A stretch of DNA of 64,000 nt from a virus, in the IMG/VR virus record IMGVR_UViG_3300024327_000544; one strand, 5' to 3'. Shown in pieces: positions 1-47,717 of the stretch (position 1 is the stretch's first letter; each line of letters opens with the position of its first letter). The notes under the pieces were generated by a model that was not told the origin of the DNA, did no database searches, and saw only the letters and a program-made list of their open reading frames with translations. Both the position numbers and the translations under genes were made by a program.

Positions 1-972
1 CTTATTTAATCTCCTGTCCAATTTATCCGCGATTAACTCTTTCGTATGTTCAGGTAAATTTTGAATACATAGGTATGATGGTCCCAATGTTAAATCTAAA
101 GCGTGATCTTTTCCTTCCATGCCAAAGTGAATCGGAAGATCTACCCAATGAATTAAATCATTTAAACCCAATACAGAAAAATTATGGACAACAGAATTAT
201 ATGCGACATTAGTAGGAAAGTTCATCCATCGACCTTTATTGATCTCAAACTTCTTCATATTTAAACCGCGGCGATTCCATTCACCCAGCTTACCTATAGA
301 ATCTATACTTAATACTATAGTAATCTTTTTAAATAATCGTAAATACTCTTGCCATTCTTTATTTGGAAAGATGGAATTATTTGTATTAATAAACAGTTCA
401 ACATTTTGAATAATATTTCGTTCTTTTAGTACTTCAAAGATATTTAAAAATCGGGGTTCTATTAAGGGCTCGCCTCCAAGGATTCTCAATAATACTAAAC
501 TATCTAAATTAACCCCAACCATATCATCAGGAGAAGTTAAATGTCTTCGAGGTGATAGCTGACCAGTTTTATCTACTCCTAATTCATTTAATGCTTTATC
601 ATCTTTATACCACTTATTACTAAAATGGCTATTACACGCTATACATTGAAAATTACATTTATTACTTAAACATAATTCTAATTCTCTTATTGCCGGTTCT
701 GTAATATTTGCATATTTTGTATTCCAATAATCGCGATGACTTGGATTACCATTTTCAGCATCTACCTTACATTCAATACACCCTTTAATGTCTTCATCAT
801 TGCACATTCGCATACGAAAATCATTATAATCAGATCCATTAAAAAATTCTTGAATATTTCTATGAGTAGATCCTATTTTAACATCTTTAAGGCGTATAAA
901 ATAAGAAGAACAAGGCATTACAGAACCATCTTCATCTTGTCTAATTGTAACCCACGGTGCCAAGCATTTCAT
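1..972 (-). CDS. Radical SAM protein with N-terminal SPASM/twitch-like region, truncated by the window edge (not in ORF track)
   Basis: Manual translation from ATG at 972: MKCLAPW..VMPCS..GCIECK..ELCLSNKCNFQCIAC (CxxxCxxC)..LRILGGEP. The frame stays open to position 1. Confidence 0.85.
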   Translation of the reverse strand, partial: MKCLAPWVTIRQDEDGSVMPCSSYFIRLKDVKIGSTHRNIQEFFNGSDYNDFRMRMCNDEDIKGCIECKVDAENGNPSHRDYWNTKYANITEPAIRELELCLSNKCNFQCIACNSHFSNKWYKDDKALNELGVDKTGQLSPRRHLTSPDDMVGVNLDSLVLLRILGGEPLIEPRFLNIFEVLKERNIIQNVELFINTNNSIFPNKEWQEYLRLFKKITIVLSIDSIGKLGEWNRRGLNMKKFEINKGRWMNFPTNVAYNSVVHNFSVLGLNDLIHWVDLPIHFGMEGKDHALDLTLGPSYLCIQNLPEHTKELIADKLDRRLNK

Positions 973-981
973 ATATAATTA

Positions 982-1203
982 TTAATCATTTGTCAAATTC
1001 GGTTCGCCTCTTGGATAATATTTAAAAGGTTCGTCGTTTTTACATCCGCCCGCACTTTTTCTTTTGAGATATTCATAATCTACAAAAACTTTTCCTTCAT
1101 ATTCGCACTCTGCGAAAAACGGAGTCAATGGATAAGGCCAGTTATTTTCTTTTGAACAACCAATCATCAATAACATTACAACTAGTAATGCTATTTTAAC
1201 CAT
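982..1203 (-). CDS. Small predicted lipoprotein
   Basis: Basic-hydrophobic N-terminus ending in lipobox-like LMIG-C, with two further Cys in the mature part. Confidence 0.6.
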   Translation of the reverse strand: MVKIALLVVMLLMIGCSKENNWPYPLTPFFAECEYEGKVFVDYEYLKRKSAGGCKNDEPFKYYPRGEPNLTND

Positions 1204-1429
1204 AGGGTCTCTTTTCTGTATTTTTATGTGGTACTTCTTTTTCTACACATTGTCGATAAGGTCTAGTGTTATTTTGATTAGACCATCTAGTGCCTCTCTG
1301 ATGACCATCGGCGCCTACCCAATATCCATAACATCCTGCTTGTCTTACTGCTTCACATCCTACAACCATCCATGTTACCATAATAATGCAAACTAATACC
1401 TTTTGCATTTTTTTATCCTTTTTCTTCAT
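1196..1429 (-). CDS. Small predicted lipoprotein (start may be 1408)
   Basis: MQKVLVCIIMVTWMVVG-C lipobox, with two further Cys in the mature part. Confidence 0.6.
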   Translation of the reverse strand: MKKKDKKMQKVLVCIIMVTWMVVGCEAVRQAGCYGYWVGADGHQRGTRWSNQNNTRPYRQCVEKEVPHKNTEKRPYG

Positions 1430-1448
1430 TTGAGTTTAGTGAATACAA

Positions 1449-1456
1449 TATTTATA
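1449..1456 (-). promoter_or_regulatory. T4-type late promoter TATAAATA
   Basis: Exact T4 late consensus in the short gap upstream of the two lipoprotein genes. Confidence 0.6.
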
Positions 1457-2197
1457 TTACCAATTCCCCATGGTGTTTGGGTCCGGACAGAAACGAAATT
1501 GCCTATCATATTCCTTATAATGATCTAAAGACCTTTCTGTTAAACTGCTTTCGAGTTTTATCATTTCTTGTAATCGATTAATTTTAGTGCTTCTAACAAT
1601 TGGATTAACACCTTTAGTTAATAACCAATCAAGCATAACATTTAATGAGATCGGCGGTGCTCCAAAAATAGATTTGCCTCTACAGATAGAAGAATAAGAC
1701 TGTGCTTCAATGTTGTGACGATTACATTCATTAACCAATTCATCATTCTGGCAAAATATATTTAATTCAAATTGATTTATATCAGGTGGTGTTTCACATA
1801 TATCTAATAATTTATGAAGATGTTTTATTGTAAAATTACAAACACCTATTTTTTCAACTCGGCCTTCATTTTTAAGATATTCAAATGCTCTCCATGTTTC
1901 TTTTAATTCTTTTAGTGGTAAAACAGGCCAATGTATTAAATATGTTGTTATACTTAAATGTTCACTGGATTTTTCAAACTCCTCAATAACATTTTCATAT
2001 CCCCATTTAAAATAATCTAATTTAGATTGGACTTGAAAGATGTCCTCAAGATCATTACCAACTTCTTTCTCATTTAAATATCCAGGTGCAGTATCAAAAG
2101 TATCAAAGCCAGCTTTTACTGCATTTTTAATTCCAGTACCTTTACCCTTTAAAGCGTGGCCATCATCGGCCCATTTTTCAACTGTTCCGAATATCAT
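1457..2197 (-). CDS. Aldo/keto reductase
   Basis: FDTA..Y.NE, SKL, YLIHWP, IGVCNF and NQFE motifs. The catalytic D/Y/K/H tetrad is present. Confidence 0.9.
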   Translation of the reverse strand: MIFGTVEKWADDGHALKGKGTGIKNAVKAGFDTFDTAPGYLNEKEVGNDLEDIFQVQSKLDYFKWGYENVIEEFEKSSEHLSITTYLIHWPVLPLKELKETWRAFEYLKNEGRVEKIGVCNFTIKHLHKLLDICETPPDINQFELNIFCQNDELVNECNRHNIEAQSYSSICRGKSIFGAPPISLNVMLDWLLTKGVNPIVRSTKINRLQEMIKLESSLTERSLDHYKEYDRQFRFCPDPNTMGNW

Positions 2198-3261
2198 ATA
2201 TTATACATTATAATGGGTGGAACATTATCAGTCATTTTACTCATATCCTCTAAGGCATATTCAGAAGGCTCAGCATGCATATATTCATTTTCAAATTCTG
2301 GTAAAAAATCTAATAACGATTTATTATATTGAATATCGCGTGCCTTTAAAAAACTCATGGCTGATTTAAATTTATCTAAATCTGGAAAAGCTTCTTTAAA
2401 AGATTTCGTTAACTGGTTACTTTTACTATATTGAAGCTTATATGGTATGGGTAAATTTATAGCATCTAAAATACTGGGTACCATCAATCTATTAACCGAA
2501 GTTAACTTTTTTCCAAATTCATCAGACACATAATTTTTAATATCATTTAAATACCTATAATTCATCATTTGCATAGTACACATAAAATCTATATCAAAGT
2601 ATTCTGCATATTTTTTTATATTTAAATGTTTTTTAGTAAAATTGGAACCTTGGCGAATATAATCATCTAATTGTCCAACACCATCTATTGAAACTATAAA
2701 TTTAATTTTCTTCTTAGTTAATTTATACAACCATTTGGGAAAAGTAGTAGCATTAGTTATAAGTACAAATTCTGCATCAAGATTAAATAGAACATCTTTT
2801 ACACTTTTCATTAATAGTGCTTCGCCACCTATAAACCCAATTTTTTTAATATCTCTGAACTCATCAATATTATAATTCCAATTATCTATTAACGGTCCAT
2901 ACTTAGAAGACCTCTCAGGACCGCAACCAGCACATCGGAGATTGCATCGATTGCCAATTTGATTTAAATTAATATGAGTTAATTCTTCTTTGGGGGGTTT
3001 AATAAAAGGAATTCTAGGAGACGTTTCATTAGAATTTTCTAATTTTATACAAAACCGACACATGTCTTGTATATCAGAAGAAAATATACCATTAGCCATA
3101 TCTGATCGAATATTTTTCAATAAAGAACTATTAAAAAAACTATTCGGAGATGAATTATGATATTTTGGATATACCTTAGACCAAGAACAAGTTTGATAGT
3201 CCCCTTCCATGGTCATATTTAACATGCTATATGGAAATTCACATGTAAAGTTTTTAGTCAT
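2194..3261 (-). CDS. Radical SAM protein with N-terminal SPASM/twitch-like region
   Basis: CEFPY..TCS..CRFC, followed by CNLRCAGC, GGEAL, ITNAT and VSIDG. Confidence 0.85.
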   Translation of the reverse strand: MTKNFTCEFPYSMLNMTMEGDYQTCSWSKVYPKYHNSSPNSFFNSSLLKNIRSDMANGIFSSDIQDMCRFCIKLENSNETSPRIPFIKPPKEELTHINLNQIGNRCNLRCAGCGPERSSKYGPLIDNWNYNIDEFRDIKKIGFIGGEALLMKSVKDVLFNLDAEFVLITNATTFPKWLYKLTKKKIKFIVSIDGVGQLDDYIRQGSNFTKKHLNIKKYAEYFDIDFMCTMQMMNYRYLNDIKNYVSDEFGKKLTSVNRLMVPSILDAINLPIPYKLQYSKSNQLTKSFKEAFPDLDKFKSAMSFLKARDIQYNKSLLDFLPEFENEYMHAEPSEYALEDMSKMTDNVPPIIMYNI

Positions 3262-3262
3262 A

Positions 3263-4126
3263 TTAATCGGGGACAGCTATCCTATATGTCATGCCCCATT
3301 TATCAAATGATGTGTTTGTTGTAATAGAATATCCTAAGCTGGTTACAAATTCGTCAATCGTTTCTGGAGTCTGTATTGTCTCGCGATCTGCCTTACTAAT
3401 ACCTCCGGCACTTTCATCAAAATTACAAGTATCTGATTGATGACCGTAATAACTCATTTCAGCTTCATATGCTTGATATATTATAACAGGTCTGCATGCT
3501 GCTATGGTATCAATAGCACCCATAATAGCAAGATATTCACTACCATTAGTATGCAAATTAATTAAATCAACATCGGTAAAACTGTATTCATCAATTTCTT
3601 TCATTGTAATATCTGAAGACCTATCAGTTTCTGCGGAAAACACTGCCTCAACCGTTGGTCTATCGGCTCTGACAAATCTGGAAGAACTATAGTCGGCAGC
3701 ATCAGTTAATTCCATGATACCAACTTCACCCTGTTTGACCTGTGCCCCATCTTTCAAAAATATTTCTACGACATATTCTTTACCATCCGACAGAGTAACA
3801 GTCTTACTAGTCCGATGTGAAATAATAACATTATGTAAGGTTATGCCGGTTTTACTTTCCGTATTTTTGTTAATGCATTCACAATTATCGGCAGAAAGCT
3901 CAAATGAATAAACTGCATTAAAATTATCACTCAAAACCGATGTCCAGGCCCCAGTATATGCTCCAATGTCTATTGAGACTCTTGTATTAGATAAACTTAA
4001 ATCATTTAATATTTTCTGATGAAAACTGAAAGACGCATCGTTAGTTCCAATGGGAAAATCATCAGCTAGTTTATCTCTGAGTGCTGTATCGCTTTCGTTT
4101 CTATACCATCCGTTATCTTGTATCAT
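3263..4126 (-). CDS. FkbM-like SAM-dependent methyltransferase (divergent)
   Basis: IDIGAYTGAW..VYSFE SAM-binding motif. The usual KIDVEG motif is replaced by NLHTNG. Confidence 0.65.
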   Translation of the reverse strand: MIQDNGWYRNESDTALRDKLADDFPIGTNDASFSFHQKILNDLSLSNTRVSIDIGAYTGAWTSVLSDNFNAVYSFELSADNCECINKNTESKTGITLHNVIISHRTSKTVTLSDGKEYVVEIFLKDGAQVKQGEVGIMELTDAADYSSSRFVRADRPTVEAVFSAETDRSSDITMKEIDEYSFTDVDLINLHTNGSEYLAIMGAIDTIAACRPVIIYQAYEAEMSYYGHQSDTCNFDESAGGISKADRETIQTPETIDEFVTSLGYSITTNTSFDKWGMTYRIAVPD

Positions 4127-4142
4127 TTAACTACCCTTTTAT

Positions 4143-5222
4143 TTAATAAGAATTGAACGCTGGGAATCTTGCATCGTTAAATCCTAAAATATCGTTCATC
4201 TCATTAATTTCTTTTATATATTGTGATTTCCATGGTTCTTTTAAATATAGACTATCAACTCTTTGTATATATCTTAAATTATGTTGAATCCTATATCCTA
4301 ATCTACCCTTAGATAAATCGCCTTGGCGCCTATGTAGAGAAATCGCATTATCAAAAAAACATAAATCTCTAGAAGTATACCAATGATCGTAAATATATTT
4401 ATCTACTAATAATGTTTCATTTATACTATCGGTTATTTTTTTAAACTCTGAATCAGTTGCACCTTTAATTCCGGAAACGGTACTGGTAATAGTATAATGT
4501 AAACCTTTTATTCCACCTGGGGATTGCATAACCATAGGCAATTCACATCTTTCAGGACACATATTATTTTTAATTATTACTTGTTGTTCATCTTCAGATA
4601 ATTCAGGAGTAAATCTATTTTTAGTAAAATCATGAACAAGAATCATATCATCGAGCTCACTTCTGAAAGATTCTGTTTGTTCTTCATACCAATCGGTCGT
4701 TGTCAAAAATCCAGTAGAAGATCCCACGACATCTGCAAATCCATAAAAAGCTACGCTGGGTGCAAATAAAAAATTACCAGATTCATTAGCATGCCAAAGC
4801 AGTTCTCCGTCGGGAAACATTCCTGTAAAATCACCATTCTCATCTCTTCTAGATGTTACTCTAACTGCTGCAGCTTTTTCTGGATCTATATCAGTAGCCT
4901 TAACCTTATCCACTGCCCTGAACCATTGCTTCTCTTCATCAGTTAAATCTAATTCTGCCATATTATCAGCAAATTGAAAAACATCTGTGAACCCATATTT
5001 TTTGGTAATGTTAACCAAAAAAGTACTAGTGCCATCACCCCATTTTAGGGTTAGCTCTTCGAATTGTGCTAAAGTAAAATCACAATCGCGTATTATAACT
5101 ACTAAATTATCCAAATATAAAGTAGCAATCTCATTCCATAATTCAGGAGTAATATCTTTATAATGTAGATCGTCTATGAATAGACCAAATCTTCCTAATC
5201 CGGGTATTTTACTTGTTTTCAT
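4143..5222 (-). CDS. TauD/TfdA-family Fe(II)/2OG dioxygenase
   Basis: LVVIIRD N-terminus, LLWHANE, DWYE, HDF, and FDNAISLHRR..RLGYR C-terminal motif. Confidence 0.8.
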   Translation of the reverse strand: MKTSKIPGLGRFGLFIDDLHYKDITPELWNEIATLYLDNLVVIIRDCDFTLAQFEELTLKWGDGTSTFLVNITKKYGFTDVFQFADNMAELDLTDEEKQWFRAVDKVKATDIDPEKAAAVRVTSRRDENGDFTGMFPDGELLWHANESGNFLFAPSVAFYGFADVVGSSTGFLTTTDWYEEQTESFRSELDDMILVHDFTKNRFTPELSEDEQQVIIKNNMCPERCELPMVMQSPGGIKGLHYTITSTVSGIKGATDSEFKKITDSINETLLVDKYIYDHWYTSRDLCFFDNAISLHRRQGDLSKGRLGYRIQHNLRYIQRVDSLYLKEPWKSQYIKEINEMNDILGFNDARFPAFNSY

Positions 5223-6247
5223 ATATTGCTTTGAAATTGAGTTGTGTGGCTCATAATAGTGTTTGTTGTGTCGTCTATTTCATCTGGAGATATAAACTTT
5301 GATTCTAAGTGGGACCAATATCGTTGATAATCTGTGCTGTCCCAATCCTCATATATGTCATCCCACGTATGTTCGGTCATATGAGGTATAAAAAAATAAT
5401 CTGCTATAGGATCAGATGTGGGTATAAATCTATAATCAGCGGATAGTCTTAAATGATTCGTTGTATTGGTTGTACTAAAATGAGTAGACAAACAATTAAA
5501 GAATAATACATCACCACTTTCAAAATCGCTAGCCAACCATTCATGATCATCTTTATTTAGTTTATAAGTTATCTGATTGGATTGGTCATAAAATCTATCT
5601 TCATTTGGAACAATGCCTATATTTAAATGACTATTCTTCGCAGTTACTATAACACCCTTATCCATAGGAATATCGCCTAATGGGACCCATGCAGTCCACA
5701 TATTTTTCGCAACTCCGGAATACCAAAAATCCTGATGTAATTTAGAAAATTCACCATTATTTTTAAAAAATCTAAAAAGTGCTCTGGGTAATAAAACATA
5801 TTCTTCGCCATACATATGAGAAAATAATTTAAGTACAGCAGGTTCTTTATGTAAATATTCATTAAAAGATTGTAATTTAACACACTTATCCCAAAATACA
5901 TGAGGGCCGGAACCGGAATTAACATCTATGTCATCTCGTAAAATATCATCTTTTATTAATAAATTTTGTTCATCACATATACGCAAAACATCATTCCTTA
6001 AAGACATATTTCTTTCTACATCCACTGCTCCTTTTATATATAAGTAACCATCTGACTTAGCTCTTTTTTTAATCTCGTCATAATCACCATCATGAAATGC
6101 CTCACTTGAATCTGTATATGGAGTTATATCATAATCTTTAATCTCACCAGACCAATCATTATGAACAGTTGCATATAAACCGTGCATTACAGCACTGTCC
6201 GTAGCATTATGTTGAATTCGTTTTTCTACGTCCTGTTGATTACTCAT
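5219..6247 (-). CDS. Phytanoyl-CoA dioxygenase (PhyH) family oxygenase
   Basis: DGYLYIK, HQD, TAWVPLGD, GDVLFF..H..TTN..RLSADYRF. Confidence 0.88.
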   Translation of the reverse strand: MSNQQDVEKRIQHNATDSAVMHGLYATVHNDWSGEIKDYDITPYTDSSEAFHDGDYDEIKKRAKSDGYLYIKGAVDVERNMSLRNDVLRICDEQNLLIKDDILRDDIDVNSGSGPHVFWDKCVKLQSFNEYLHKEPAVLKLFSHMYGEEYVLLPRALFRFFKNNGEFSKLHQDFWYSGVAKNMWTAWVPLGDIPMDKGVIVTAKNSHLNIGIVPNEDRFYDQSNQITYKLNKDDHEWLASDFESGDVLFFNCLSTHFSTTNTTNHLRLSADYRFIPTSDPIADYFFIPHMTEHTWDDIYEDWDSTDYQRYWSHLESKFISPDEIDDTTNTIMSHTTQFQSNI

Positions 6248-8067
6248 GGAGCTCCTCCTAATTCAACTTCGCTCCCATCAATTATATTTTGTGTTACATC
6301 TCGATAATAAAAATCCGAATCATCTTTTCTTTTTATCATTTCAATCGTCTCCGTGAATTGTTCATCATTTAAATCATTTTTGCACGCATCAGAAATAAAT
6401 GTTGTGATATCATGAAAGAAAAACTCATGATGTTCCTGGAAAAATTTAATATCTTGAAATTTTTGAGATTTCATATCATATGCAAAATAACTTTTATTTA
6501 CTAAAGACTCTAATTCAGAATATCTTTCATTTATGATTCCATAAGAATTGAGAATATATGTTTGCATTTTCTTAAAAACATTAACTATCGGAATATTAAG
6601 ACATTTACTTATATAACTTACAATATCTTTTAAAACAATGTGATACCAAAAACATTCTATTATCCAATAAAACATCCAACACTTAATAACATTAGATTCT
6701 GACATTGAAAAGGTTTCTACTATTATATCAGCATATTCCAAATGTTCATTTTTATATTTGTCTAAACTGGTATATATACGTCTATCAGAAAAATCCTTAC
6801 TTACAAAATAATTGTACGGCATATTTCTAACTTTGATTTTATATTTTTTTTGATATTCAGCCGTACCAAATTCGGAATTAGGAAGAACCATGGCCGGATA
6901 TATCATTCCATCAGACGAATCATTTTGTAAAAAATATTCCCAATCAGCAACAAAACTATCATATGTCATTCCCGGTAAAGGAATTATAAGTTCAACTTCA
7001 AAAGGTACATCATTTTGCTTTTGATTATCTACTATTAGATCTAGATCAGTTATGCTTAAATTATCACGTCTAATATTAGTTAATGTATCATGATCAAAAC
7101 TTTGTATAGCTACTCTAGGAGATGGTGTTTTATTATCAGGTAATGCCTCCCTGATCAATCTCTGAATTTCAGCGACGCCATTTCTTTTCGGAGGTGTCTT
7201 GGCATACCCTAATGTAGGAAAAAATTCAGGATAGCCTTCTTTTTTGTAAGTATCCACTAAATGTTGTACGAGTTCAACATCTCTTTTTTTAAATATACCA
7301 AAATTTGCATCGGATATCCACATTGCAAACATTTTTTTATCTGCAATGTATGTAATTTCATCCTTACATCTATTTATATCAAATATTTTAACTTTTTGAT
7401 AAGTTAACCCACCCCAATCACAAAAAGAACATCTAAAGGGACACCCCCTATTAGATTCCCATGTAGCATGGAATTTTACATCAGGATACTCTTTCATTAT
7501 TTTTTCAAAAAACCCAGTAAGATAGGGACTTGGTATTACATCAAGATCTTTCATTCTAGGATGCTTCGGTGTTCTCAGGATACCATTAGTATCATTTAAT
7601 ATGATTCCATTTATTTTAGAATAGTCTGGATTATCATTAATTCCTTCTAATAAAATATTTTCAAAAATTTCTTCGCCTTCATTTACAGCAGCAATATCAA
7701 TATATGGCCGATCTTTAAACCATTCATCCTGTTTAACTGGTATATGAGGGCCACCAACAACAATAAGACAATTAGGATATTTTTCTTTAATCTTTTCTGC
7801 TATAATACATTGAAAGCTAGTATTCCAAACATAACAACAAAATGCCACTATGTCTGGTTGATCTAGTTTATTCAATACATCATCTAAAGGGTCCCTCATC
7901 ACAATAGTGTCTTTAAGAACGTAATTATCTTTAATCAATTCATTACGATGAGCATATTCCCATAATACGCCTGCCGTGTAGGGTAAAAATGCCCATTCAC
8001 ATTTTGACATCCCCCCTATAGTTTCGTCAGCTGGGGTTATTTGACACATGTATATATTTTTGCTCAT
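6244..8067 (-). CDS. Cobalamin-binding radical SAM protein (class B methyltransferase-like)
   Basis: DIVAFCCYVWN..VVGGPH B12 domain, then PSPY and SNRGCPFRCSFCDWG. Confidence 0.9.
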   Translation of the reverse strand: MSKNIYMCQITPADETIGGMSKCEWAFLPYTAGVLWEYAHRNELIKDNYVLKDTIVMRDPLDDVLNKLDQPDIVAFCCYVWNTSFQCIIAEKIKEKYPNCLIVVGGPHIPVKQDEWFKDRPYIDIAAVNEGEEIFENILLEGINDNPDYSKINGIILNDTNGILRTPKHPRMKDLDVIPSPYLTGFFEKIMKEYPDVKFHATWESNRGCPFRCSFCDWGGLTYQKVKIFDINRCKDEITYIADKKMFAMWISDANFGIFKKRDVELVQHLVDTYKKEGYPEFFPTLGYAKTPPKRNGVAEIQRLIREALPDNKTPSPRVAIQSFDHDTLTNIRRDNLSITDLDLIVDNQKQNDVPFEVELIIPLPGMTYDSFVADWEYFLQNDSSDGMIYPAMVLPNSEFGTAEYQKKYKIKVRNMPYNYFVSKDFSDRRIYTSLDKYKNEHLEYADIIVETFSMSESNVIKCWMFYWIIECFWYHIVLKDIVSYISKCLNIPIVNVFKKMQTYILNSYGIINERYSELESLVNKSYFAYDMKSQKFQDIKFFQEHHEFFFHDITTFISDACKNDLNDEQFTETIEMIKRKDDSDFYYRDVTQNIIDGSEVELGGAP

Positions 8068-9679: not shown

Positions 9680-10287
9680 GTATCCGCCTTTATCTGTTTT
9701 ATTCTACTCTCAAATTTTCCTGTACTAAGATCAAATGTATCACCTGTGCTTACACCATCAACAAATAAATTATCTTTGTATTCCAAATAATATGGAGATT
9801 CTTGAAAATCAAAAATATTATTATTTGATATCATTACAGGTGGTATACATTCTGTAGAACCATATATGTTCCAAACATTTTGTGCGCCTGTTGATTTCAT
9901 TAGTGATATATCTTCATCAGTAACTGGCGCAGAGCCTGTAGAAAAATTCCTAACAAATTCAAGATTAGGTTTTTTTCTTTTAACAAGGGTCCTCCATGTT
10001 CCAATTGCTAATGTAAGAATTGTAGGTTTAACTTCTTCTACAACATCCCAGAATTTCAAAGGTTCAAATTTAATATTTACTAAATTACAATGGGCAATTT
10101 TTGCAGGTATTATACAAAACGCCCAGCATGCAATAGTCCATGTTGGGAAAGGGTTTATAATAACATCATCGTATCCTATTCCCCATTTTTCAACTAACCA
10201 ATGACCGGCTTTATAAAAATCCTTTTCAGCATGTGTAACTAGTTTTTGTTTTCCTGTTGAACCACTAGTATATAAAGATATTTTCAT
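9667..10287 (-). CDS. Minimal AMP-binding (ANL superfamily) enzyme
   Basis: LYTSGSTGKQK P-loop, GSAP, IYGSTE and TGD motifs, in only 206 aa. Confidence 0.75.
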   Translation of the reverse strand: MKISLYTSGSTGKQKLVTHAEKDFYKAGHWLVEKWGIGYDDVIINPFPTWTIACWAFCIIPAKIAHCNLVNIKFEPLKFWDVVEEVKPTILTLAIGTWRTLVKRKKPNLEFVRNFSTGSAPVTDEDISLMKSTGAQNVWNIYGSTECIPPVMISNNNIFDFQESPYYLEYKDNLFVDGVSTGDTFDLSTGKFESRIKQIKADTWKS

Positions 10288-10778
10288 AAATTATATTTCC
10301 AAATATTTTGTTTCACATTATTAAACATTTTGACATCCACTAAATCTACGATACCTTTTTGGGATAACTTTTTCATAATGTTTGAAAATTTATAACTCTT
10401 AACACCATTTTTAGAATCTACATTATTTGTTAAATAATATGGTCCGACTCCACCTGTAATTTCCTTTTGGATGTTTATATGGCTCCATTGATATGAACTT
10501 TGTATAATATCTCTCGATACTTTTTTTACATGTCCAGGAAGAGTAACACCTCTGAATAATAAACGATATCCTTTTAACTCTTCTTCCCATTTAACACCAC
10601 TCATAGAAATTAAAGATGAATCTATAAAGGTTCCCACCCACTTGGCTTCATTATATTTGATACTTTTTAAACTCACATTATTTTTATATCTTAAATATGA
10701 GCATTCAACTAAAAATTCTAATATTATCAATAAATCATCGTCATTTAATGATCTATTACTGCATTGCATAACCCACAC
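10284..10778 (-). CDS. Possible GNAT-fold acyltransferase
   Basis: Size and beta-strand pattern (WVGTFID..LISMSG..YRLLFRG) resemble GNAT folds. No strong motif. Confidence 0.4.
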   Translation of the reverse strand: MWVMQCSNRSLNDDDLLIILEFLVECSYLRYKNNVSLKSIKYNEAKWVGTFIDSSLISMSGVKWEEELKGYRLLFRGVTLPGHVKKVSRDIIQSSYQWSHINIQKEITGGVGPYYLTNNVDSKNGVKSYKFSNIMKKLSQKGIVDLVDVKMFNNVKQNIWKYNL

Positions 10779-12408
10779 CTAAATTATCTATAGACCTATT
10801 AAAATATTTGTATATGAATTTTTCAAAGTCCTTTAAAACTAAATTAACATGTTCTCGAAAATACCCAATGCAATAATTATGATCAACTACTTGGTCATAA
10901 TCATCATATGTATTATGAATATTATTTTTTAATCGATTATATAATATGCCTGTGGTTGATGTTGGATTATTTTCTAGAAAATCTTGAAATTTAACAAAAA
11001 AATCTTTTATTTTAACATCGGCTTTAAAATATTCATAATATATGTATCTTAATATTGGTTCAAACCAAAAATTCTTAACAATCCATACAAACATCCAGCC
11101 TTTAACAACATCTTCATATGACATAGACTCCATAGAAGTAATAATTTCACATTCTTCCATGTCAACATTAAAGGGAATGGTTTTTGTTTTCATTTTAAAA
11201 CGTTTCTTATAAGATTTATCATTAAGCTCCGCATTCGGTAAAATTAAACAAGGATATACGTTTATTTTTAATTTTTTAATTGGCATCATTCCGGATAGCT
11301 CTTTAACCCATCCATCATACGTAGTACCTGGTAGGGGATATATTAATTCAATCTCTATATCTTTAGAATTCATCTTATCCGCATTAACAATGCTCATATT
11401 TTTTCTTTTAATATTAGATAAAACTTCTGGATTGGTAGATTGTAAAGCTACTCTAGGAACAGTATTATTATTCTTAACGCCCTCTAATAATCGTTGTTGT
11501 ATTTGTAATGAAGAATTTTTATTTGCCGGTGTTTTTGCATAACCTGAGTGTGCTATTTTTTTAGGATAACCTGTAGTTTCATGATACCCTACTGCCTTAT
11601 CTATTATATTATAATCTCTTTCTTTAAATATACCCAAATTACTATTTGTGAACCAAAGATAATTTATTTTATTGCGACTAATCCATTCAAATTCTTTAAA
11701 TAGTCTACATTCATCAAATTTTATCATCTTTTGTTGAGTTAAACTACCCCAATCACAAAAGGTACATTTAAATGGACAACCTCTATCCATCTCAACGGTA
11801 GCGTGAAAATTAACTGAAGGATTTTTTAATATAAGATTATTAAAAAGCCCCGACAAATATGGACTAGGGATTGTATTAATATCTTTAATTCTAATAGCTT
11901 GTTTCGTTTTAAAAACTTCATTATTTTTTCTAAAAATAATTCCTGGTATCTCAGAAAAATCTTTTTTATTAAAATATTCTAATAAAATTTGTTCAAAGAT
12001 TTTTTCTCCCTCTCCCACAGCACCAATATCCACATAGTCATGCGAATCATACCATTTATCATCATTAGAATTAGGAACATGTGGTCCTCCACAAATAATC
12101 AAACAATCCGGATACTTTTTTTTTAATTTTTTTAATATATAAAGGTGTTTATTAGAATTCCACATATAATTACTAGTAGCAACTATATCTGGTTGTTCTA
12201 TGTTATCAATATAATGATCTAAATCATCTATATTAAACACTAAATCCTTTAATATAAAATTATCGGATATTATTTTATTTTGTAAACAATAAGACCAAAG
12301 AAGACCGACAGAATATGGTAAAAATACCGATTTATTACTCGACATTTCAACTCCAACGGAAGAGTCAGATAAAGGAGATGTTAATTGTAATAAGTAAACG
12401 TTCTTCAT
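10756..12408 (-). CDS. Cobalamin-binding radical SAM protein, second copy
   Basis: FLPYSVGLLW, DIVATSNYMWN, ICGGPH and MDRGCPFKCTFCDWG. Paralog of 6244..8067. Confidence 0.9.
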   Translation of the reverse strand: MKNVYLLQLTSPLSDSSVGVEMSSNKSVFLPYSVGLLWSYCLQNKIISDNFILKDLVFNIDDLDHYIDNIEQPDIVATSNYMWNSNKHLYILKKLKKKYPDCLIICGGPHVPNSNDDKWYDSHDYVDIGAVGEGEKIFEQILLEYFNKKDFSEIPGIIFRKNNEVFKTKQAIRIKDINTIPSPYLSGLFNNLILKNPSVNFHATVEMDRGCPFKCTFCDWGSLTQQKMIKFDECRLFKEFEWISRNKINYLWFTNSNLGIFKERDYNIIDKAVGYHETTGYPKKIAHSGYAKTPANKNSSLQIQQRLLEGVKNNNTVPRVALQSTNPEVLSNIKRKNMSIVNADKMNSKDIEIELIYPLPGTTYDGWVKELSGMMPIKKLKINVYPCLILPNAELNDKSYKKRFKMKTKTIPFNVDMEECEIITSMESMSYEDVVKGWMFVWIVKNFWFEPILRYIYYEYFKADVKIKDFFVKFQDFLENNPTSTTGILYNRLKNNIHNTYDDYDQVVDHNYCIGYFREHVNLVLKDFEKFIYKYFNRSIDNLGVGYAMQ

Positions 12409-13412
12409 AAGCTGGCATCATTTAAAAACTTATAAGAATAGTTTTCCCTAAAAAAATTAATATTATATTTTGGTTTATTCAATGTATGATATTTTTTTAA
12501 AGATCTCCAATATTCAGTATGATCATTTTTAGAAGAAGTGTAAAATAATTCCAAAAAATCATATACATGCTGACACAATCTAACATATGAACGATTAAAT
12601 ATTTCCTCTTTATTTTTTTTATATTTTAATTTTTCAATAGTTTCTATCGCCCATGTTATTAGAAAAAGTCCTGTAGCTTCAAGAGGTTCTGCAAATCCAC
12701 AACTTAATCCCACAGACACGGTATTCCCCAACCACGGGGTTAAACAATACCTATTATTAAAGGGAATAGCTTGAATGTCTTCGGCTTTAACATTGCCTAC
12801 ATTTTTATTTTTAAATTCTTCAATGGCATCATTTACACTTATAAAATTATTATTAAAAACATACCCATTACCACTCCTTGATCTTAAATCTACATTCCAC
12901 ATCCACCCATAATCCATAGCGAAAGTATTTGTTATAGATTGACAATTAGAATCACCGGGCGCGAAGAGTGCCATATTATTAGACAGAGTTTTATAAGAAC
13001 CAAATTGTTTATTTTTAGAAAAATCACTATTGAAGCCGGTGCAATCTATTACTAAATCAGGATTATCTACTTTACATAATCTGGAGCGCGTTTTTTCTTC
13101 TAGAAGAATAATCATTTTTAACGCATCTAAATGATAAGCATGAGTATTATTGGGAAACGGGTGTACCCAATCAGTTTTATGCCAACCATGATGTTTAATA
13201 CCATATTTAATTACACCGTCACACTTATTAATTACATCATCTTCAGATATTCCACAATAATCAAAAAATTTAACTAGTCCAGGTAATGTACTTTCTCCAA
13301 CACCTATAGGTTTGGAATTTTTAGGAAGCTTTATTTCAACTTTATTAGTTCGGGATAAATATGCGGCTGCTAACCAACCAGCACTTCCTCCACCTAAAAT
13401 TAATATGTTCAT
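12405..13412 (-). CDS. Flavin-dependent (tryptophan-halogenase-like) halogenase, compact
   Basis: GGGSAGW, IGVGESTLP, catalytic K in VIKYGI, GWMWNVDL and GFAEPLEATG. Confidence 0.85.
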   Translation of the reverse strand: MNILILGGGSAGWLAAAYLSRTNKVEIKLPKNSKPIGVGESTLPGLVKFFDYCGISEDDVINKCDGVIKYGIKHHGWHKTDWVHPFPNNTHAYHLDALKMIILLEEKTRSRLCKVDNPDLVIDCTGFNSDFSKNKQFGSYKTLSNNMALFAPGDSNCQSITNTFAMDYGWMWNVDLRSRSGNGYVFNNNFISVNDAIEEFKNKNVGNVKAEDIQAIPFNNRYCLTPWLGNTVSVGLSCGFAEPLEATGLFLITWAIETIEKLKYKKNKEEIFNRSYVRLCQHVYDFLELFYTSSKNDHTEYWRSLKKYHTLNKPKYNINFFRENYSYKFLNDASL

Positions 13413-13942
13413 AGTTGATTAAACAAATATAATGTTTCTTTAAATGGAATATATACAGGATGTCCATTTCGTGTTTCTATATCTAAAAATTGATATCGGG
13501 ACATATTATCAAAAAAACCAATATTCGGATGTAGCATATGTTTCATTCGGTGCAGAGGAAGATCATTACTTTGTTGTGCCCATGGTTCATTTGAATTAGA
13601 TATTCCTTTTGATATTAAAAGTGTACGATTTAATCTATAAGTATAATCTAATGATTCTTTTTCCATGTCATCTAAAACCAAATTCATATCATAGCTAACT
13701 AAATCTCTCCAATGAACATGTTCATTTAACATAAACAGCGCTACTTGTTCAGGTATAGAGAGCGGAAAATCAACTCTTGAAGTTAAATCATATTCACTCA
13801 TATAGTCTACTAATGTTTCTCCATTAGGTGCAGGGCAAACTTCTCTATCAGGATTATTATGCATACTACATGTCCATGTCTGTAATGTAATAGCAAATTC
13901 TTCCATGGATTTTTTCATTACTTTCCGCCGTGCTTCTTCCAA
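13409..13942 (-). CDS. Hypothetical protein
   Basis: 177-aa ORF overlapping its neighbours in the operon. No motif recognised. Confidence 0.6.
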   Translation of the reverse strand: MEEARRKVMKKSMEEFAITLQTWTCSMHNNPDREVCPAPNGETLVDYMSEYDLTSRVDFPLSIPEQVALFMLNEHVHWRDLVSYDMNLVLDDMEKESLDYTYRLNRTLLISKGISNSNEPWAQQSNDLPLHRMKHMLHPNIGFFDNMSRYQFLDIETRNGHPVYIPFKETLYLFNQL

Positions 13943-14112
13943 TTTTCAGGATACTTTTCTCGTAACATCGCATCTATAGAATCTTCAAATTCTTTGCTAT
14001 TTTTGCCTGGTTTATAAGTGCAGGGGAATTTTAAATCTTCTTTCCCAAAGTTTTCTTTCCAATAGTTGACTATCTTGTTTATTATCATATTCTTTTTCTT
14101 TCTGTTAAGCAT
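13918..14112 (-). CDS. Small hypothetical protein
   Basis: ORF tiled between operon genes. The likely start is the internal MIINK. Confidence 0.5.
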   Translation of the reverse strand: MLNRKKKNMIINKIVNYWKENFGKEDLKFPCTYKPGKNSKEFEDSIDAMLREKYPENWKKHGGK

Positions 14113-15344
14113 TCATAGCCTACCATCATTGAAGCTATATTATAATGATTTAATAATGTATCATTTTTCTTACAATATCGTTTATTCTTTAATGAGCGTT
14201 CGAAAAAATCTTGTATATCACTTTTCTGTTCTGTCCAATACTCCCACCATTCTGAATCTTTTCTTTCACTTAATATATAATGATATTTTACAAATTCTTT
14301 AGTGTGCTTTAAAAATTTATCCATAATTTTATTAAGAGTTTCTATTCTTTTACCTCTCTTAATAATTTCAACGAATTTTTCAACTGTATAACAAGTCATC
14401 ATTAATGATGTTGCTTCCAACGGTTCAATAAAGCTTTGTGCTAAGCCATTACTAATACAATTTTTAATTGCAATATCTTTCATTTTACCAGATACAAAAC
14501 TTTTCTTTTCTCCTTCTATACCTGATTCCTCCATTGCCTTTTCATGACTTGTTAAATGATCACAATAAACATAACCGGCGTTCGTTCTATCTTGAGTATC
14601 TATCTCCCATCGCCAGCCATTTTTTAATGCAGTTGTTACTGTATAAGGTCTTTTTTTATGTTTATCTAGTCTACCAACAATATACGAATTGGCTATCATA
14701 TCTTCATAAGGTTCAAAAGATGATAACCTATTAATCAATATTCTTTCAAATCCGGAACAATCTATAAAATAGTCTGCATGTAGTATATGGTTTTCTGTTC
14801 CGATAGAACGTATTCCATTTTTATCTGAAAGAACAGTAGTAACATCTTCTTCAATTAACCTATATTCACCTTCCAATTCATTTTTACAAGCAAGCCCCAA
14901 TTTATCTGCCTGTACTTGAAATCCATATCCTGGAATTGAATTATTTTTAGTATCCATTATATTATTTTTACATCTAACTAAAAAATCGCCATGATAATAA
15001 TTAAATGTAGTAGTATCAATTTTAGGATGTTCGTTTTTCAAAAATTCAATAGAGTCAACACCATCTTTTATAAAAGCATCTTCAAATAAATGATACCATT
15101 CACTATTAGGTCTTAACCAGTCGTTAAATTTTATTCCATACTTGATAAGGGCTTTACTATCTTCTTGCCATGACTTAACATCTTCTATAACTTTTAAAAT
15201 AGTAGGTGTTGTTGATTCTCCTACACCTATAATTTCATTTTCTTTTTTATGGACAACTGTTAATTCACAATCTAAATTTCTTTTTAGATAATGAGATGTA
15301 ATCCATCCTGCGGCGCCTCCACCAACTACTACGAATCTAACCAT
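14085..15344 (-). CDS. Flavin-dependent (tryptophan-halogenase-like) halogenase, second copy
   Basis: GGGAAGW, IGVGESTTP, LIKYGIKF..W, FIDCSGF, GWRWEID and FIEPLEATS. Confidence 0.88.
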   Translation of the reverse strand: MVRFVVVGGGAAGWITSHYLKRNLDCELTVVHKKENEIIGVGESTTPTILKVIEDVKSWQEDSKALIKYGIKFNDWLRPNSEWYHLFEDAFIKDGVDSIEFLKNEHPKIDTTTFNYYHGDFLVRCKNNIMDTKNNSIPGYGFQVQADKLGLACKNELEGEYRLIEEDVTTVLSDKNGIRSIGTENHILHADYFIDCSGFERILINRLSSFEPYEDMIANSYIVGRLDKHKKRPYTVTTALKNGWRWEIDTQDRTNAGYVYCDHLTSHEKAMEESGIEGEKKSFVSGKMKDIAIKNCISNGLAQSFIEPLEATSLMMTCYTVEKFVEIIKRGKRIETLNKIMDKFLKHTKEFVKYHYILSERKDSEWWEYWTEQKSDIQDFFERSLKNKRYCKKNDTLLNHYNIASMMVGYECLTERKRI

Positions 15345-16486
15345 GATACTAAATGAGGATGTAAATAATTTTTATAACTTTGGGATCTAGACATATCGAA
15401 TAATTCTATTTCTTTTTTAACCGATTCTTTCCTTTCAACGTTTCGTATTTTATAAGATTGAATTATTTGCTGATGTTTTCTAGAATCTATGTAAGGCAAC
15501 TCATTTAATAAAGCTCTGCTCAAATTCTTAGGGCTGATGCCCCTATTATCAGGATATACTTCACAATATGAAACAAAAACTTTTTTAGGTAAGGTACAAC
15601 ACCATGACCAATGATTATGAAGGTCTAAGATATTTAAAGCAGAAATAACAACAGCAATATTAATTCTGCCCAAATTAGTAGAATTATTTAAAAATAAACG
15701 AACGGTTTTATCTAAATCATCAAAATTGGAAGGATGACGTATATAGTCATATCCTTCTTCTATTGAATCTATACTAATTTTTGGAAACTGTTTTTTGAAT
15801 TGATTTAACTTGCCAATTAATTCATCATTAAATAGGGTACCATTAGTATGATACGCTAAGATGGTATCTTTTGCCCAACCTTCTTTAATATATTTATCCA
15901 ATAAATCTATTATTAATGAATCAAAAAATGGTTCGCCACCACTAAATCTTAATTCCTTTACTGGATTATTTAAAAGCCATTTATATTGAATCGAATTTTT
16001 TACATTTGGTATATTTAATTCTTCTCTAAATTTACCAGCTGTTATATTTTCAATATCTTTAATTAACCCTTGGGATTTGAAAAACTTCCAATCTACCATT
16101 AACCTATGACTTGTTTGTGGATCACACATTCTACAAGCTAAATTACATTTATTAGATAAGGTAAAATCAATTGAATCTAATTGTCCTTTAGGAATTATAT
16201 CATCATTATGAATATAAAAAGGTTCAATATTCCTCTCTTCCATATTCCAACAAGTTTTACAAAAATCATTCTTGCGATTATTATCAAAATCATCTCGCAA
16301 CAACTTAAATTGTTCTGATTCAAATATTTCAGGGGGGGTTAATTTATCTATGTCATGCATTCCCATTGGATCTTCCCATTCCGGGCGAGACATATTACAG
16401 CAAGGATGGGACCACTTTAATTTATCGCCGTCCCAATCTTTTAAGGCAACTTGCTTGTAAGGGTAACTACATAACATTCCAGCCAA
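15329..16486 (-). CDS. Radical SAM protein with N-terminal SPASM/twitch-like region
   Basis: CSYPY..HPCC..CKTCW, then CNLACRMC, FSGGEP, HTNGT and ISIDS. Confidence 0.88.
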   Translation of the reverse strand: MAGMLCSYPYKQVALKDWDGDKLKWSHPCCNMSRPEWEDPMGMHDIDKLTPPEIFESEQFKLLRDDFDNNRKNDFCKTCWNMEERNIEPFYIHNDDIIPKGQLDSIDFTLSNKCNLACRMCDPQTSHRLMVDWKFFKSQGLIKDIENITAGKFREELNIPNVKNSIQYKWLLNNPVKELRFSGGEPFFDSLIIDLLDKYIKEGWAKDTILAYHTNGTLFNDELIGKLNQFKKQFPKISIDSIEEGYDYIRHPSNFDDLDKTVRLFLNNSTNLGRINIAVVISALNILDLHNHWSWCCTLPKKVFVSYCEVYPDNRGISPKNLSRALLNELPYIDSRKHQQIIQSYKIRNVERKESVKKEIELFDMSRSQSYKNYLHPHLVSWLDS

Positions 16487-17267
16487 GTGCTTTTAATGGA
16501 GCAGAATCAGCACAAGTTTCTTCTGACTCACCGGTTACATTTTTAAACGGTAATGCATCAATATCAAATTCTTCTGGTCCTTGTGCTTTTGCAAAATCAT
16601 ATACAGACATTGGGCTTCCATACCCAATCTCATAAACTGGTAGTTTCTTTTTCCAAACTTTAAAATTTTCCATTAATAATTTAATAGCATTACAAACATC
16701 ATCTACATGACACCAATCTCTAGTATGTGTTGTTAGATATCCTATTTCTTTTTGTTGGAGTTGTCTATAAAACATATCAGGACGTGAGCGCTCACCCCAT
16801 ACTGTAAAGAATCTCATTCCTATAGCATTATTAGGAGCCATGGCTTCACCGGCAGCTTTTGTCATTGCATAAGGGCTTTTCATATCTTTAACGGAAGAAC
16901 TTGATGCATATAATATTTTAGAATTTTTATAATGATTAAAGATACGTGCTGTACCTTTTATATTCGTATCACAATAATCTTTTAAATATTTTTCTTGCCA
17001 ACTTTTACGAACACCAGCTTTTGCAGCTAGATGAATAACATATTCTGCATTTGAAAATGGTAAGGGATCTTTAGTAATATCGCAATGAGAATGAGGGACT
17101 TCCCTGTCTTCCCAGCCTAACCCGGAACAGTCGTCTATACCTTTAACATTGTAGCCTTCGTCCATTAATGAGTCATATAAATGATGACCAATGAATCCTT
17201 TAACGCCCGTTATCAGGACTTGGTTTTTCACTTCCATTCCTTCAATGTCGTTTCCAAGAGTTTCCAA
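16467..17267 (-). CDS. NAD-dependent epimerase/dehydratase
   Basis: ITGVKGFIG, HLAAKAGVR, YASSSS, YAMTK and RFFTVWG. Confidence 0.9.
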   Translation of the reverse strand: METLGNDIEGMEVKNQVLITGVKGFIGHHLYDSLMDEGYNVKGIDDCSGLGWEDREVPHSHCDITKDPLPFSNAEYVIHLAAKAGVRKSWQEKYLKDYCDTNIKGTARIFNHYKNSKILYASSSSVKDMKSPYAMTKAAGEAMAPNNAIGMRFFTVWGERSRPDMFYRQLQQKEIGYLTTHTRDWCHVDDVCNAIKLLMENFKVWKKKLPVYEIGYGSPMSVYDFAKAQGPEEFDIDALPFKNVTGESEETCADSAPLKALGWNVM

Positions 17268-43869: not shown

Positions 43870-43908
43870 ATTTTCCTTTTTGATTAATTATTAATATAGT
43901 TTACTTAA

Positions 43909-47349: not shown

Positions 47350-47376
47350 TTAATCCTTTCAATTTAATCATTATAT

Positions 47377-47707: not shown

Positions 47708-47717
47708 ATTTTCCTTT

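Follow-up and report, generated by a model that had tools for sequence, protein, structure and literature searches.

A 43-kb radical SAM gene cassette in a T4-like phage genome and its conserved core in phages and Bdellovibrionota

We describe a 43.4-kb cassette of 53 co-directional genes, 19 of them encoding radical S-adenosylmethionine (SAM) enzymes, in the genome of an uncultured marine T4-like phage. The window that we analyzed is a stretch of 64,000 nucleotides from IMG/VR virus record IMGVR_UViG_3300024327_000544, for which a preliminary description, made from the letters alone, had singled out positions 1-17267 as a 17-kb island of tailoring enzymes. The window corresponds to the reverse strand of G000:C1:7392-71391, G000 being an IMG/VR viral record (167,436 bp; CheckV completeness 100%). 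Seen in the complete genome, the flagged stretch is the periphery of a cassette (hereafter the island) that spans G000:C1 54125-97490 and takes up 26% of the genome: the co-directional run continues for ~26 kb past the window edge (G000:C1 71.4-97.5 kb) and holds 14 further radical SAM genes there. The right end at 17267 had been placed correctly, with a PD-(D/E)xK nuclease coming next, and the left end is an artifact of where the window stops. The flagged 17 kb are the variable, lineage-specific flank of the island; its conserved core lies outside the window and is common to hundreds of large phages and to chromosomes of Bdellovibrionota. We give about an even chance to the reading that the island encodes a cytoplasmic pathway building and editing a sugar-based product, with the radical SAM paralogs as stepwise C-H editors. 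The observations behind it are the extent of the island, the paralogy, conservation, and co-occurrence of its genes, the folds of the partner proteins, and the neighborhood of sugar enzymes.

Extent, location, and radical SAM content of the island

The genome is T4-like, with a gp43 polymerase (PHROG 262) at 49% identity to cyanomyovirus polymerases, a DnaB-like helicase, ribonucleotide reductase, RNase H, gp59, and gp32. Searches of the genome found neither psbA, and so no sign of a cyanophage, nor an A-type Fe-S carrier, and so no sign of a phage-encoded Fe-S assembly helper; a nucleotide search with the island against cultured phages gave zero matches. The cassette is inserted at the rnh/gp59-gp32 junction, and beyond its right end (17267) lie the PD-(D/E)xK nuclease, a zinc ribbon, a cell-wall hydrolase, DUF6433, and RNase H. 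As the preliminary description had it, the enzymes form one tightly overlapping minus-strand run: all listed window genes, called from the open reading frame (ORF) listing and Pfam/NCBIfam scans, are on the minus strand, and 42 of the 52 gene junctions in the island overlap. The island had also appeared AT-rich, and the GC profile bears this out (0.308 vs. 0.347 elsewhere in the genome; per-gene Mann-Whitney p = 3e-11). The reported lack of a nonribosomal peptide synthetase (NRPS) or polyketide synthase (PKS) scaffold enzyme extends beyond the window, with no ketosynthase, NRPS condensation, or carrier-protein (PP-binding) domain anywhere in the complete genome. The island shows no enrichment of T4 late-promoter motifs, and scans for sigma-70 promoters and terminators gave no excess over shuffled controls.

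The island radical SAM genes, all with the canonical CX3CX2C motif and a Radical_SAM match, were sorted by all-against-all BLAST into nine of N_Twi type, four of a family we call rSAM-B, a small radical SAM-SPASM pair, two B12-dependent enzymes, and three singletons. The nine N_Twi paralogs, three in the window and six more outside it, share 21-34% identity. Membership in NF033640 (N_Twi_rSAM) was defined by a whole-protein hidden Markov model score at or above the curated cutoff of 170 bits; four of the five candidate genes scored pass it, with scores that include 175.4, 208.9, and, for the core N_Twi ortholog at G000:C1 79799-81241, 408.3 bits, and the gene at window positions 2194-3261 fails it at 132 bits. 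The architecture is that of the family, with Pfam SPASM at residues 3-80, Radical_SAM from residue ~102, and a C...C(C)...CxxC pattern ahead of CX3CX2C at residues 105-160. The three SPASM/twitch radical SAMs claimed for the window are thus present (1-972, 2194-3261, and 15329-16486), with the auxiliary Cys domain at the N terminus, as in the NF033640 type. Nine island genes share with NF033640 the N-terminal four-Cys auxiliary-cluster domain followed by CX3CX2C; they differ in being nine diverged paralogs within one array, one of them split and one (2194-3261) scoring under the cutoff. The split gene, G000:C1:73506-74680 (+), consists of ORFs of 251 and 140 amino acids (aa) with a 4-nt overlap, and a related 105-kb contig has its homolog as an unbroken frame of 392 aa. 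The island radical SAMs are old, individually conserved paralog families.

The part of the island outside the window further encodes a nitroreductase-family protein, an aminotransferase, an amidinotransferase closest to StrB1 (E 3e-14) with a catalytic GGVHC motif, a QueC-like PP-loop ATPase, a 119-aa ORF with 7 Cys after the small radical SAM-SPASM pair, and, at its 3' end, proteins with methyltransferase and GT8-like glycosyltransferase folds. Other genes at the 3' end, including a putative SGNH-like and a putative GT9-like one, gave zero Pfam matches at E up to 5, and a PHROGs search returned weak glycosyltransferase matches only.

A core shared by phages and Bdellovibrionota

The conserved core comprises the N_Twi ortholog, rSAM-B, two further families that we call rSAM-345 and rSAM-412, the PP-loop ATPase, class-I methyltransferase-fold proteins, and the GT8-like glycosyltransferase. 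The N_Twi ortholog has >3100 metagenomic homologs at 53-91% identity and occurs in at least 578 IMG/VR contigs, and its ESM-Atlas neighbors are viral clusters labeled "hypothetical" or "twitch domain-containing radical SAM"; a protein search against cultured phages found no close homolog, only matches of ~25% identity in jumbo phages. We annotated 83 loci of up to 21 kb with the island's own proteins and found a median of 7 and a maximum of 13 radical SAMs per locus. The recurring unit is methyltransferase-fold/rSAM-B/N_Twi ortholog, often joined by rSAM-345, rSAM-412, the PP-loop ATPase, more N_Twi paralogs, and a 249-aa protein. In this survey the halogenases, PhyH, TauD, FkbM, and aldo-keto reductase (AKR) genes of the flank occur in close relatives only, and the B12 radical SAMs also in a few distant arrays. 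Radical_SAM matches per whole record number 11-17 in other phages against 18 in G000 by the same measure.

The same core is found in cells. A scan of one genome per prokaryotic species with two exact peptide patterns, which leaves absence from other phyla unproven, returned 60 loci, ~49 of them in Bdellovibrionota, many on megabase chromosomes and mostly at ~50% identity; eight others are low-GC, phage-like contigs in assorted marine metagenome-assembled genomes. The Bdellovibrionota module holds the methyltransferase-fold protein, N_Twi, rSAM-B, rSAM-345, and sometimes three PP-loop genes, and in the isolate Bdellovibrio sp. HCB2-146 its genes are interspersed with those of an acetyltransferase and at least six GT2 glycosyltransferases. 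On the HCB2-146 chromosome a 1959-aa protein with a Peptidase_S74 (fiber chaperone) domain adjoins the radical SAM/GT2 cluster (L171:17278-21377); phmmer found such an adjacency in 1 of 52 cellular loci, and we rejected it as a general trait.

Profile and PDB sequence searches were marginal for the methyltransferase-like and glycosyltransferase-like families, whose folds were settled by predicted structures (AlphaFold2 models from alignments of core loci, compared with the PDB by Foldseek). The 221-aa partner (G000:C1 93827-94492) has a class-I SAM methyltransferase fold (predicted local distance difference test, pLDDT, 90.5), and its Foldseek PDB matches listed are all methyltransferases or of methyltransferase fold, one being a spermidine synthase. 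A third conserved family (197 aa) is homologous to this one (hhalign probability 94%). The 249-aa protein (G000:C1 91707-92456) has a GT-A, GT8-like fold (pLDDT 80) with an invariant DxD; it matches LgtC and glycogenin best (E 1e-8, TM score ~0.6), and A64R of chlorovirus PBCV-1 stands further down among the fold matches, at rank 39.

In the literature we found only passing mentions of such radical SAM arrays and no explanation. A 183-kb marine T4-like viral genome has 12 radical SAM genes, discussed under Fe-S metabolism (Nishimura 2017, PMC5332604), and pelagimyophages carry radical SAM "cassettes" in glycosyltransferase-rich hypervariable regions (Zaragoza-Solas 2020, PMC7029224). Those phages, too, are uncultured, marine, and T4-like and are rich in radical SAM genes, with cassettes that differ from one close relative to the next; in contrast to the present analysis of an island with 19, the genes were only counted or mentioned, under Fe-S metabolism or host-recognition clusters, and no product was proposed. 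New here are the conserved core, its Bdellovibrionota counterpart, the halogenase/B12/2-oxoglutarate (2OG) oxygenase/mini-ANL periphery tied to the array, and the location at the rnh/gp59-gp32 junction.

The variable flank within the window

The genes of the flank are listed from its right end (window coordinates).

16467..17267, minus strand: NDP-sugar epimerase/dehydratase, a short extended short-chain dehydrogenase/reductase (SDR), first gene of the island, 266 aa (Pfam Epimerase 1.8e-24, GDP_Man_Dehyd 5e-17)
15329..16486, minus strand: N-terminal-twitch radical SAM, 385 aa, CNLACRMC at residue 114 (NF033640 175.4 bits, cutoff 170)
14085..15344, minus strand: compact flavin-dependent halogenase, 419 aa (Pfam Trp_halogenase 9.6e-65; GGGAAG, WRWEI, and IKYGIK motifs)
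13409..14112, minus strand: two ORFs of unknown function between the halogenases, 64 and 177 aa (no family match)
12405..13412, minus strand: second halogenase, 335 aa, with ~100 central profile positions missing (Pfam Trp_halogenase 7e-62, profile 1-104 and 205-419)
10756..12408, minus strand: B12-binding radical SAM, 550 aa, probable C-methyltransferase (Pfam B12-binding; CPFKCTFC motif)
10284..10778, minus strand: 164-aa protein of unknown function (no Pfam or PHROG match)
9667..10287, minus strand: stand-alone mini-ANL, 206 aa, with P-loop-like YTSGSTGKQK at the N terminus (Pfam AMP-binding 6.6e-20)
8984..9679, minus strand: 231-aa protein, probably an Asp/Asn beta-hydroxylase-like (cupin) 2OG oxygenase (ESM-Atlas neighbors)
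8064..8990, minus strand: PhyH-family Fe(II)/2OG oxygenase, 308 aa (Pfam PhyH 1.4e-11)
6244..8067, minus strand: B12-binding radical SAM, 607 aa, CPFRCSFC motif (Pfam B12-binding 5.7e-8)
5219..6247, minus strand: PhyH-family Fe(II)/2OG oxygenase, 342 aa (Pfam PhyH 7.4e-12)
4143..5222, minus strand: TauD/TfdA-family Fe(II)/2OG oxygenase, 359 aa (Pfam TauD 3.9e-11; no match in a PDB sequence search)
3263..4126, minus strand: FkbM-family SAM methyltransferase, 287 aa (Pfam Methyltransf_21 8.5e-8)
2194..3261, minus strand: N_Twi-like radical SAM, 355 aa, CNLRCAGC motif, paralogous to the other N_Twi genes (NF033640 132 bits, under the cutoff of 170)
1457..2197, minus strand: aldo-keto reductase, 246 aa (Pfam Aldo_ket_red 1.6e-22)
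982..1429, minus strand: two small predicted lipoproteins, 77 and 73 aa (signal peptides with lipobox-like VVGC and MIGC)
1..972, minus strand: N_Twi radical SAM truncated at the window edge; 370 aa at full length, G000:C1 70420-71532 (NF033640 208.9 bits)

These genes are a coordinated unit, as the preliminary description had proposed. A search with the 419-aa halogenase led to 14 viral contigs from at least three lineages, in which the in-window gene order is identical and protein identity is mosaic (55-100%). Nei-Gojobori ratios of nonsynonymous to synonymous substitution rates (dN/dS) against three relatives lie at 0.07-0.42 for each in-window gene tested, the mini-ANL and the ORFs of unknown function among them, which places all of these genes under purifying selection. 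Contig L036 has a different gene order in which the families stay together, with the halogenase pair inside the N_Twi array; the mini-ANL adjoins radical SAMs in the distant contigs L174 and L175. Homologs assorted at random among genomes would have spoken against a coordinated pathway; random assortment fails because order is kept, families stay together in L036, and the mini-ANL keeps to radical SAMs in distant contigs.

Pfam likewise agrees with the two PhyH oxygenases, TauD, FkbM, AKR, and SDR epimerase of the preliminary description, and with its two flavin halogenases, both in the Trp_halogenase family (PF04820, above cutoff) with GxGxxG, a WxWxIP-like motif (WxWx[IV]), and the conserved lysine region (IKYGIK). 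The 419-aa copy matches PyrH, PrnA, VirX1, and others in the PDB (1e-39 to 1e-29). The halogenases share the Pfam family, GxGxxG, WxWxI, and the catalytic-lysine region with VirX1 (E 8e-29) and the bacterial tryptophan halogenases; they differ in length, 419 and 335 aa against 500-550, and in forming a tandem pair in or beside a radical SAM array. The C-terminal substrate-binding module of tryptophan halogenases (~500-550 aa in total) is absent from both, and alignments to the PDB enzymes end at residues ~370-400 of the query and ~410-450 of the targets. The 335-aa copy, which also lacks profile positions 105-204, is 95-97% identical in relatives with dN/dS ~0.1; it carries the N-terminal FAD motif in the same ORF, which rules it out as the C-terminal half of a split gene. 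The 177-aa ORF between the halogenases is kept in relatives (dN/dS 0.33-0.42). In IMG/VR contigs L018-L023 we observed tandem pairs of full-length (~520-aa) halogenases, 25-30% identical to the island's and with no radical SAM array within 10 kb; in marine phages, such pairs may form a separate unit. The nitroreductase-family flavoprotein of the island, at G000:C1:72832-73503 (+), 1.4 kb past the window start, is found in arrays without halogenases too; it could be the flavin reductase for both halogenases.

The gene called an ANL ligase (9667-10287) does match AMP-binding, over the central part only: its 206 aa cover profile positions 168-330 of 384, equivalent to FadD13 residues 162-298, and it has neither the complete ~400-aa N-terminal domain nor the mobile C-terminal domain of ANL enzymes. 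A search among short proteins found 69 homologs of 116-217 aa, mostly 202-206 aa; the mini-ANL belongs to a stable 202-206-aa family and is no broken gene. The idea that it and its two neighbors are one gene split in three is ruled out as well, the three ORFs being conserved as such, the 206-aa form being a stable family, and the upstream ORF being fused in relatives to the B12 radical SAM and not to the ANL. Its neighbors in L174 and L175 include a B12 radical SAM, DegT aminotransferase, carbamoyltransferase, nitroreductase, CTP_transf_3, NTP_transferase, and GT1, and one of the two contigs has the same hydrolase/rnh/DUF6433/zinc ribbon/island junction.

The two B12 radical SAMs reported at 6244-8067 and 10756-12408 are both of class B, with N-terminal PF02310 above cutoff followed by a CPF[KR]C[TS]FC core, and are 39% identical to each other. 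The nearest named family of the 550-aa enzyme is the KedN5 C-methyltransferase family NF033712, of which it is not a member (203 bits against a cutoff of 700). The 164-aa ORF at 10284-10778, probably the protein that had been called GNAT-like, has no family match, and that assignment finds no support; in two relatives (L015 and L006) a single 732-733-aa frame carries it fused to the C terminus of the B12 radical SAM. The two are separate, with a 23-nt overlap, in G000 and L012, and in L036 and L039 the 164-aa ORF adjoins N_Twi radical SAMs.

The former "cupin oxygenase" is probably the 231-aa protein at 8984-9679. It has no Pfam or PDB match, and its ESM-Atlas neighbors are PF05118-bearing viral clusters (score 0.97), a lead by which it is probably AspH-like. 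Its dN/dS is 0.08-0.12, and it lies directly upstream of the core N_Twi gene in L036, L039, and L067. The PhyH paralogs at 8064-8990 and 5219-6247 share 31.5% identity. The best PDB matches of the SDR are dTDP-glucose 4,6-dehydratase, MoeE5, and UDP-GlcA 4-epimerase, and its pairing with the adjoining radical SAM, whose N-terminal Cys pattern is C6, C29/C30, C76xxC79, is kept in L036 and L067. The lipoprotein pair at 982-1429, with a T4 late-promoter-like TATAAATA 27 nt upstream, was not detected in relatives L032-L035; it is probably an inserted cassette outside the pathway, and may be of spanin-like or superinfection-exclusion type. In a hydropathy scan of the island, the sole hydrophobic segments are those of the two lipoproteins and a marginal one in the mini-ANL (1.63, threshold 1.6).

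Possible products and neighboring genes

Among the substrates entertained in the preliminary description (virion fibers, a peptide, host surface glycan or lipid, tRNA or DNA, a small metabolite), the evidence favors a sugar-based one; nothing in it points to a peptide, and the only pointer to nucleic acid is the adjacency of FolE and QueC. Glycosyltransferases and nucleotide-sugar enzymes stand beside the tailoring genes: the GT8-like fold and the SDR in the island itself, and GT2, GT1, DegT, and NTP_transferase genes in homologous loci. Four kilobases from the island, a sugar operon (window 21195-24997, minus strand) encodes SIS (GmhA-like), GHMP kinase, cytidylyltransferase-like (nucleotidyltransferase), GT4, and polysaccharide pyruvyl transferase proteins. 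We infer the substrate class and every individual reaction from gene neighborhood and fold. The product would be made in the cytoplasm of the infected cell, as a glycan on a phage or host macromolecule or as a pseudo-oligosaccharide, and its carrier could be the virion fiber or capsid, the host envelope, or none, if it is free. The SDR, aminotransferase, amidinotransferase, and GmhA/GHMP-kinase/nucleotidyltransferase/GT4 operon, as nucleotide-sugar enzymes and glycosyltransferases, would supply and join the sugars. Each radical SAM paralog would then make one C-H-level edit, be it epimerization, dehydrogenation, deoxygenation, or C-C bond formation, and lineage-specific steps would add to these: C-methyl groups from the B12 radical SAMs, hydroxyl or oxidative changes from the two PhyH enzymes, TauD, and the AspH-like protein, O-methyl groups from FkbM, and keto-reduction or epimerization by the AKR and SDR. 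A halogenated acyl or aromatic substituent may come from the mini-ANL and the two halogenases.

There is precedent for such a combination. The avilamycin cluster encodes the radical SAM epimerase AviX12, the 2OG oxygenases AviO1-3, the halogenase AviH, the ketoreductases AviZ1-3, many methyltransferases, and glycosyltransferases, showing that a single oligosaccharide can be the target of all of these classes (PMC8234114). Across orthosomycin, streptomycin (StrB1), butirosin (BtrN), and gentamicin (GenK/GenD1) tailoring, the enzyme classes that act on sugars are those of the island: radical SAM epimerase or dehydrogenase, B12 radical SAM C-methyltransferases, PhyH-type 2OG oxygenases, halogenase, ketoreductases, O-methyltransferases, amidinotransferase, aminotransferases, and glycosyltransferases (PMC8234114). 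The island differs from these oligosaccharide and aminoglycoside antibiotic clusters in that only StrB1 gives a clear match (E 3e-14), no aromatic-cap PKS is present, and no resistance or export genes were seen; it also belongs to a lytic phage and not an actinomycete, and has several-fold more radical SAMs. The glycosylation machinery of chlorovirus PBCV-1 is similar in that cytoplasmic GT-A glycosyltransferases and sugar methyltransferases, predicted ones in the case of the island, are encoded by the virus; we know of no radical SAM enzymes in the chlorovirus system.

Several points weigh against a sugar-based product. Its assignment comes from gene neighborhood and fold only, since we know of no assayed enzyme in NF033640 or the other core radical SAM families. 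Four ordinary T4-type genes separate the sugar (heptose) operon from the island, and the GT9-like and SGNH-like readings of 3'-end genes are putative, made from motifs where Pfam gave zero. The island is no classical surface-polysaccharide locus, because no Wzx, Wzy, ABC exporter, or initiating phosphoglycosyltransferase was seen in it by hydropathy scan (no family HMM search was made) and it has no clear membrane segment other than the two lipoprotein signal peptides. Several other Bdellovibrionota loci have mostly unannotated neighbors and no recognizable glycosyltransferase. Finally, flavin-dependent halogenases need an electron-rich aromatic or enol substrate, and no G000 gene obviously makes one.

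Instead of a macromolecule-bound glycan, the island might make a small molecule that diffuses freely and acts on competitors, the host, or co-infecting phages, a methylated and halogenated metabolite resembling an aminoglycoside, aminocyclitol, or nucleoside; we think this unlikely. The StrB1-like amidinotransferase, the aminotransferase, the twitch and B12 radical SAMs, and PhyH plus reductases resemble aminoglycoside/oligosaccharide antibiotic pathways, BtrN being itself a twitch enzyme. A carbamoyltransferase occurs in L174/L175, all island enzymes are soluble by the hydropathy scan, FolE and QueC downstream start 7-deazapurine nucleoside pathways when joined by QueD and QueE (not found here), and a cyanophage aminotransferase/radical SAM/amidinotransferase trio has been read as "antibiotic synthesis genes" (PMC12801897). 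However, neither an exporter nor a self-resistance gene was seen, the time in which a secreted product could benefit a lytic phage is a matter of minutes, and the glycogenin/LgtC-like glycosyltransferase of the core and the GT2 genes around the Bdellovibrio module have the look of polymer or glycoconjugate assembly. These conserved partners, together with the methyltransferases and the nucleotide-sugar enzymes that accompany the arrays, also argue against modification of a ribosomal peptide or a phage or host protein (RiPP- or proteusin-like, or virion cross-linking; RiPP, a peptide made on the ribosome and modified after translation), which we consider distinctly unlikely. SPASM/twitch enzymes, B12 C-methyltransferases, 2OG hydroxylases, and halogenases all occur in RiPP pathways, there are weak second-rank NCBIfam matches to peptide maturases, and small Cys-rich ORFs such as the 119-aa one with 7 Cys are present, but Pfam found no RRE/PqqD-like domain or leader-type precursor in any island protein, the almost complete lack of intergenic space leaves no room for hidden precursor genes, and the small ORFs are not conserved across arrays.

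Hypermodification of nucleic acid, either of DNA bases (7-deazaguanine or hydroxymethyl-pyrimidine derivatives, maybe glycosylated or halogenated) or of tRNA, appears highly improbable to us. In its favor are FolE, QueC, and a dCTP-deaminase-like gene 2-5 kb downstream of the island, the QueC-like PP-loop ATPase in the conserved core, and the 7-deazapurine pyrrole ring, which would be a chemically plausible halogenase substrate; radical SAM, pyridoxal phosphate, and flavin enzymes are used in known phage thymidine hypermodification. Yet FolE and QueC are not accompanied by a tRNA-guanine transglycosylase or DpdA-type enzyme, for which no PF01702 match was detected in the complete genome (a divergent DpdA could escape), no nucleotide kinase or DNA glycosyltransferase of known type was seen in the island, 19 radical SAMs far exceed any known base-modification pathway, and the Bdellovibrio module lies among GT2 genes and not among genes of DNA metabolism. 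We see just as little probability in the view that the genes have no joint function and were acquired independently, in a hypervariable dump at an insertion-tolerant junction. This is a known variable junction of T4-like genomes whose content differs in relatives, the island has a lower GC than the remaining genome, G000 carries a split radical SAM, and radical SAM "cassettes" come and go in pelagimyophages (PMC7029224). Against it stand the tight single-strand overlaps, the purifying selection on every tested gene, and the co-occurrence of the same families after rearrangement and in distant phages and bacteria.

Taking a sugar-based product as the preferred reading, we tentatively raise a broader possibility, to which we attach rather low confidence: large, lytic phages and predatory Bdellovibrionota may share a hitherto undescribed glycan-diversifying system in which N_Twi arrays do new radical carbohydrate chemistry, as C-H-level edits with one paralog per step, on a product that in this lineage would be C-methylated, hydroxylated, and halogenated and would end up as a sugar coat on the attachment structures of the particle or predator or on the prey envelope. 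If so, a hypermodified sugar coat would matter for adsorption or for evading recognition. To devote 26% of a 167-kb genome to 53 tailoring enzymes, under purifying selection wherever tested, a lytic phage must draw an important benefit from what they make, and the core is carried by hundreds of abundant uncultured phages, marine and freshwater, as well as by predatory bacteria. A single biochemical result on this shared core would annotate thousands of genes and could reveal new radical SAM carbohydrate chemistry; the analysis yields a minimal conserved gene set for it and narrows the first substrates to nucleotide sugars. Halogenation and B12-dependent methylation are otherwise hallmarks of antibiotic pathways, and halogenated glycans or metabolites are possible in viral infection in the ocean.

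The window differs from the G000 record at 18 single positions, all from 43.4 to ~48.5 kb (43466-48547) and none in the island. On the 3' side of the island follow a permuted transfer-messenger RNA (tmRNA), SNase, FolE, QueC, a dCTP-deaminase-like gene, gp59, and gp32; FolE (GTP cyclohydrolase I), QueC, and the dCTP-deaminase/dUTPase-like gene occupy G000:C1:99228-102847 (+), between the island and gp59/gp32. The tmRNA, of the two-piece type, was found by ARAGORN directly after the island at G000:C1:97473-97817 (+) (equal to L027:11473-11817), with the tag ADNTDYFPAQVALAA and an Rfam RF04321 score of 99.7 bits. Such permuted genes are characteristic of Alphaproteobacteria and of some cyanobacteria, which may hint at the host.

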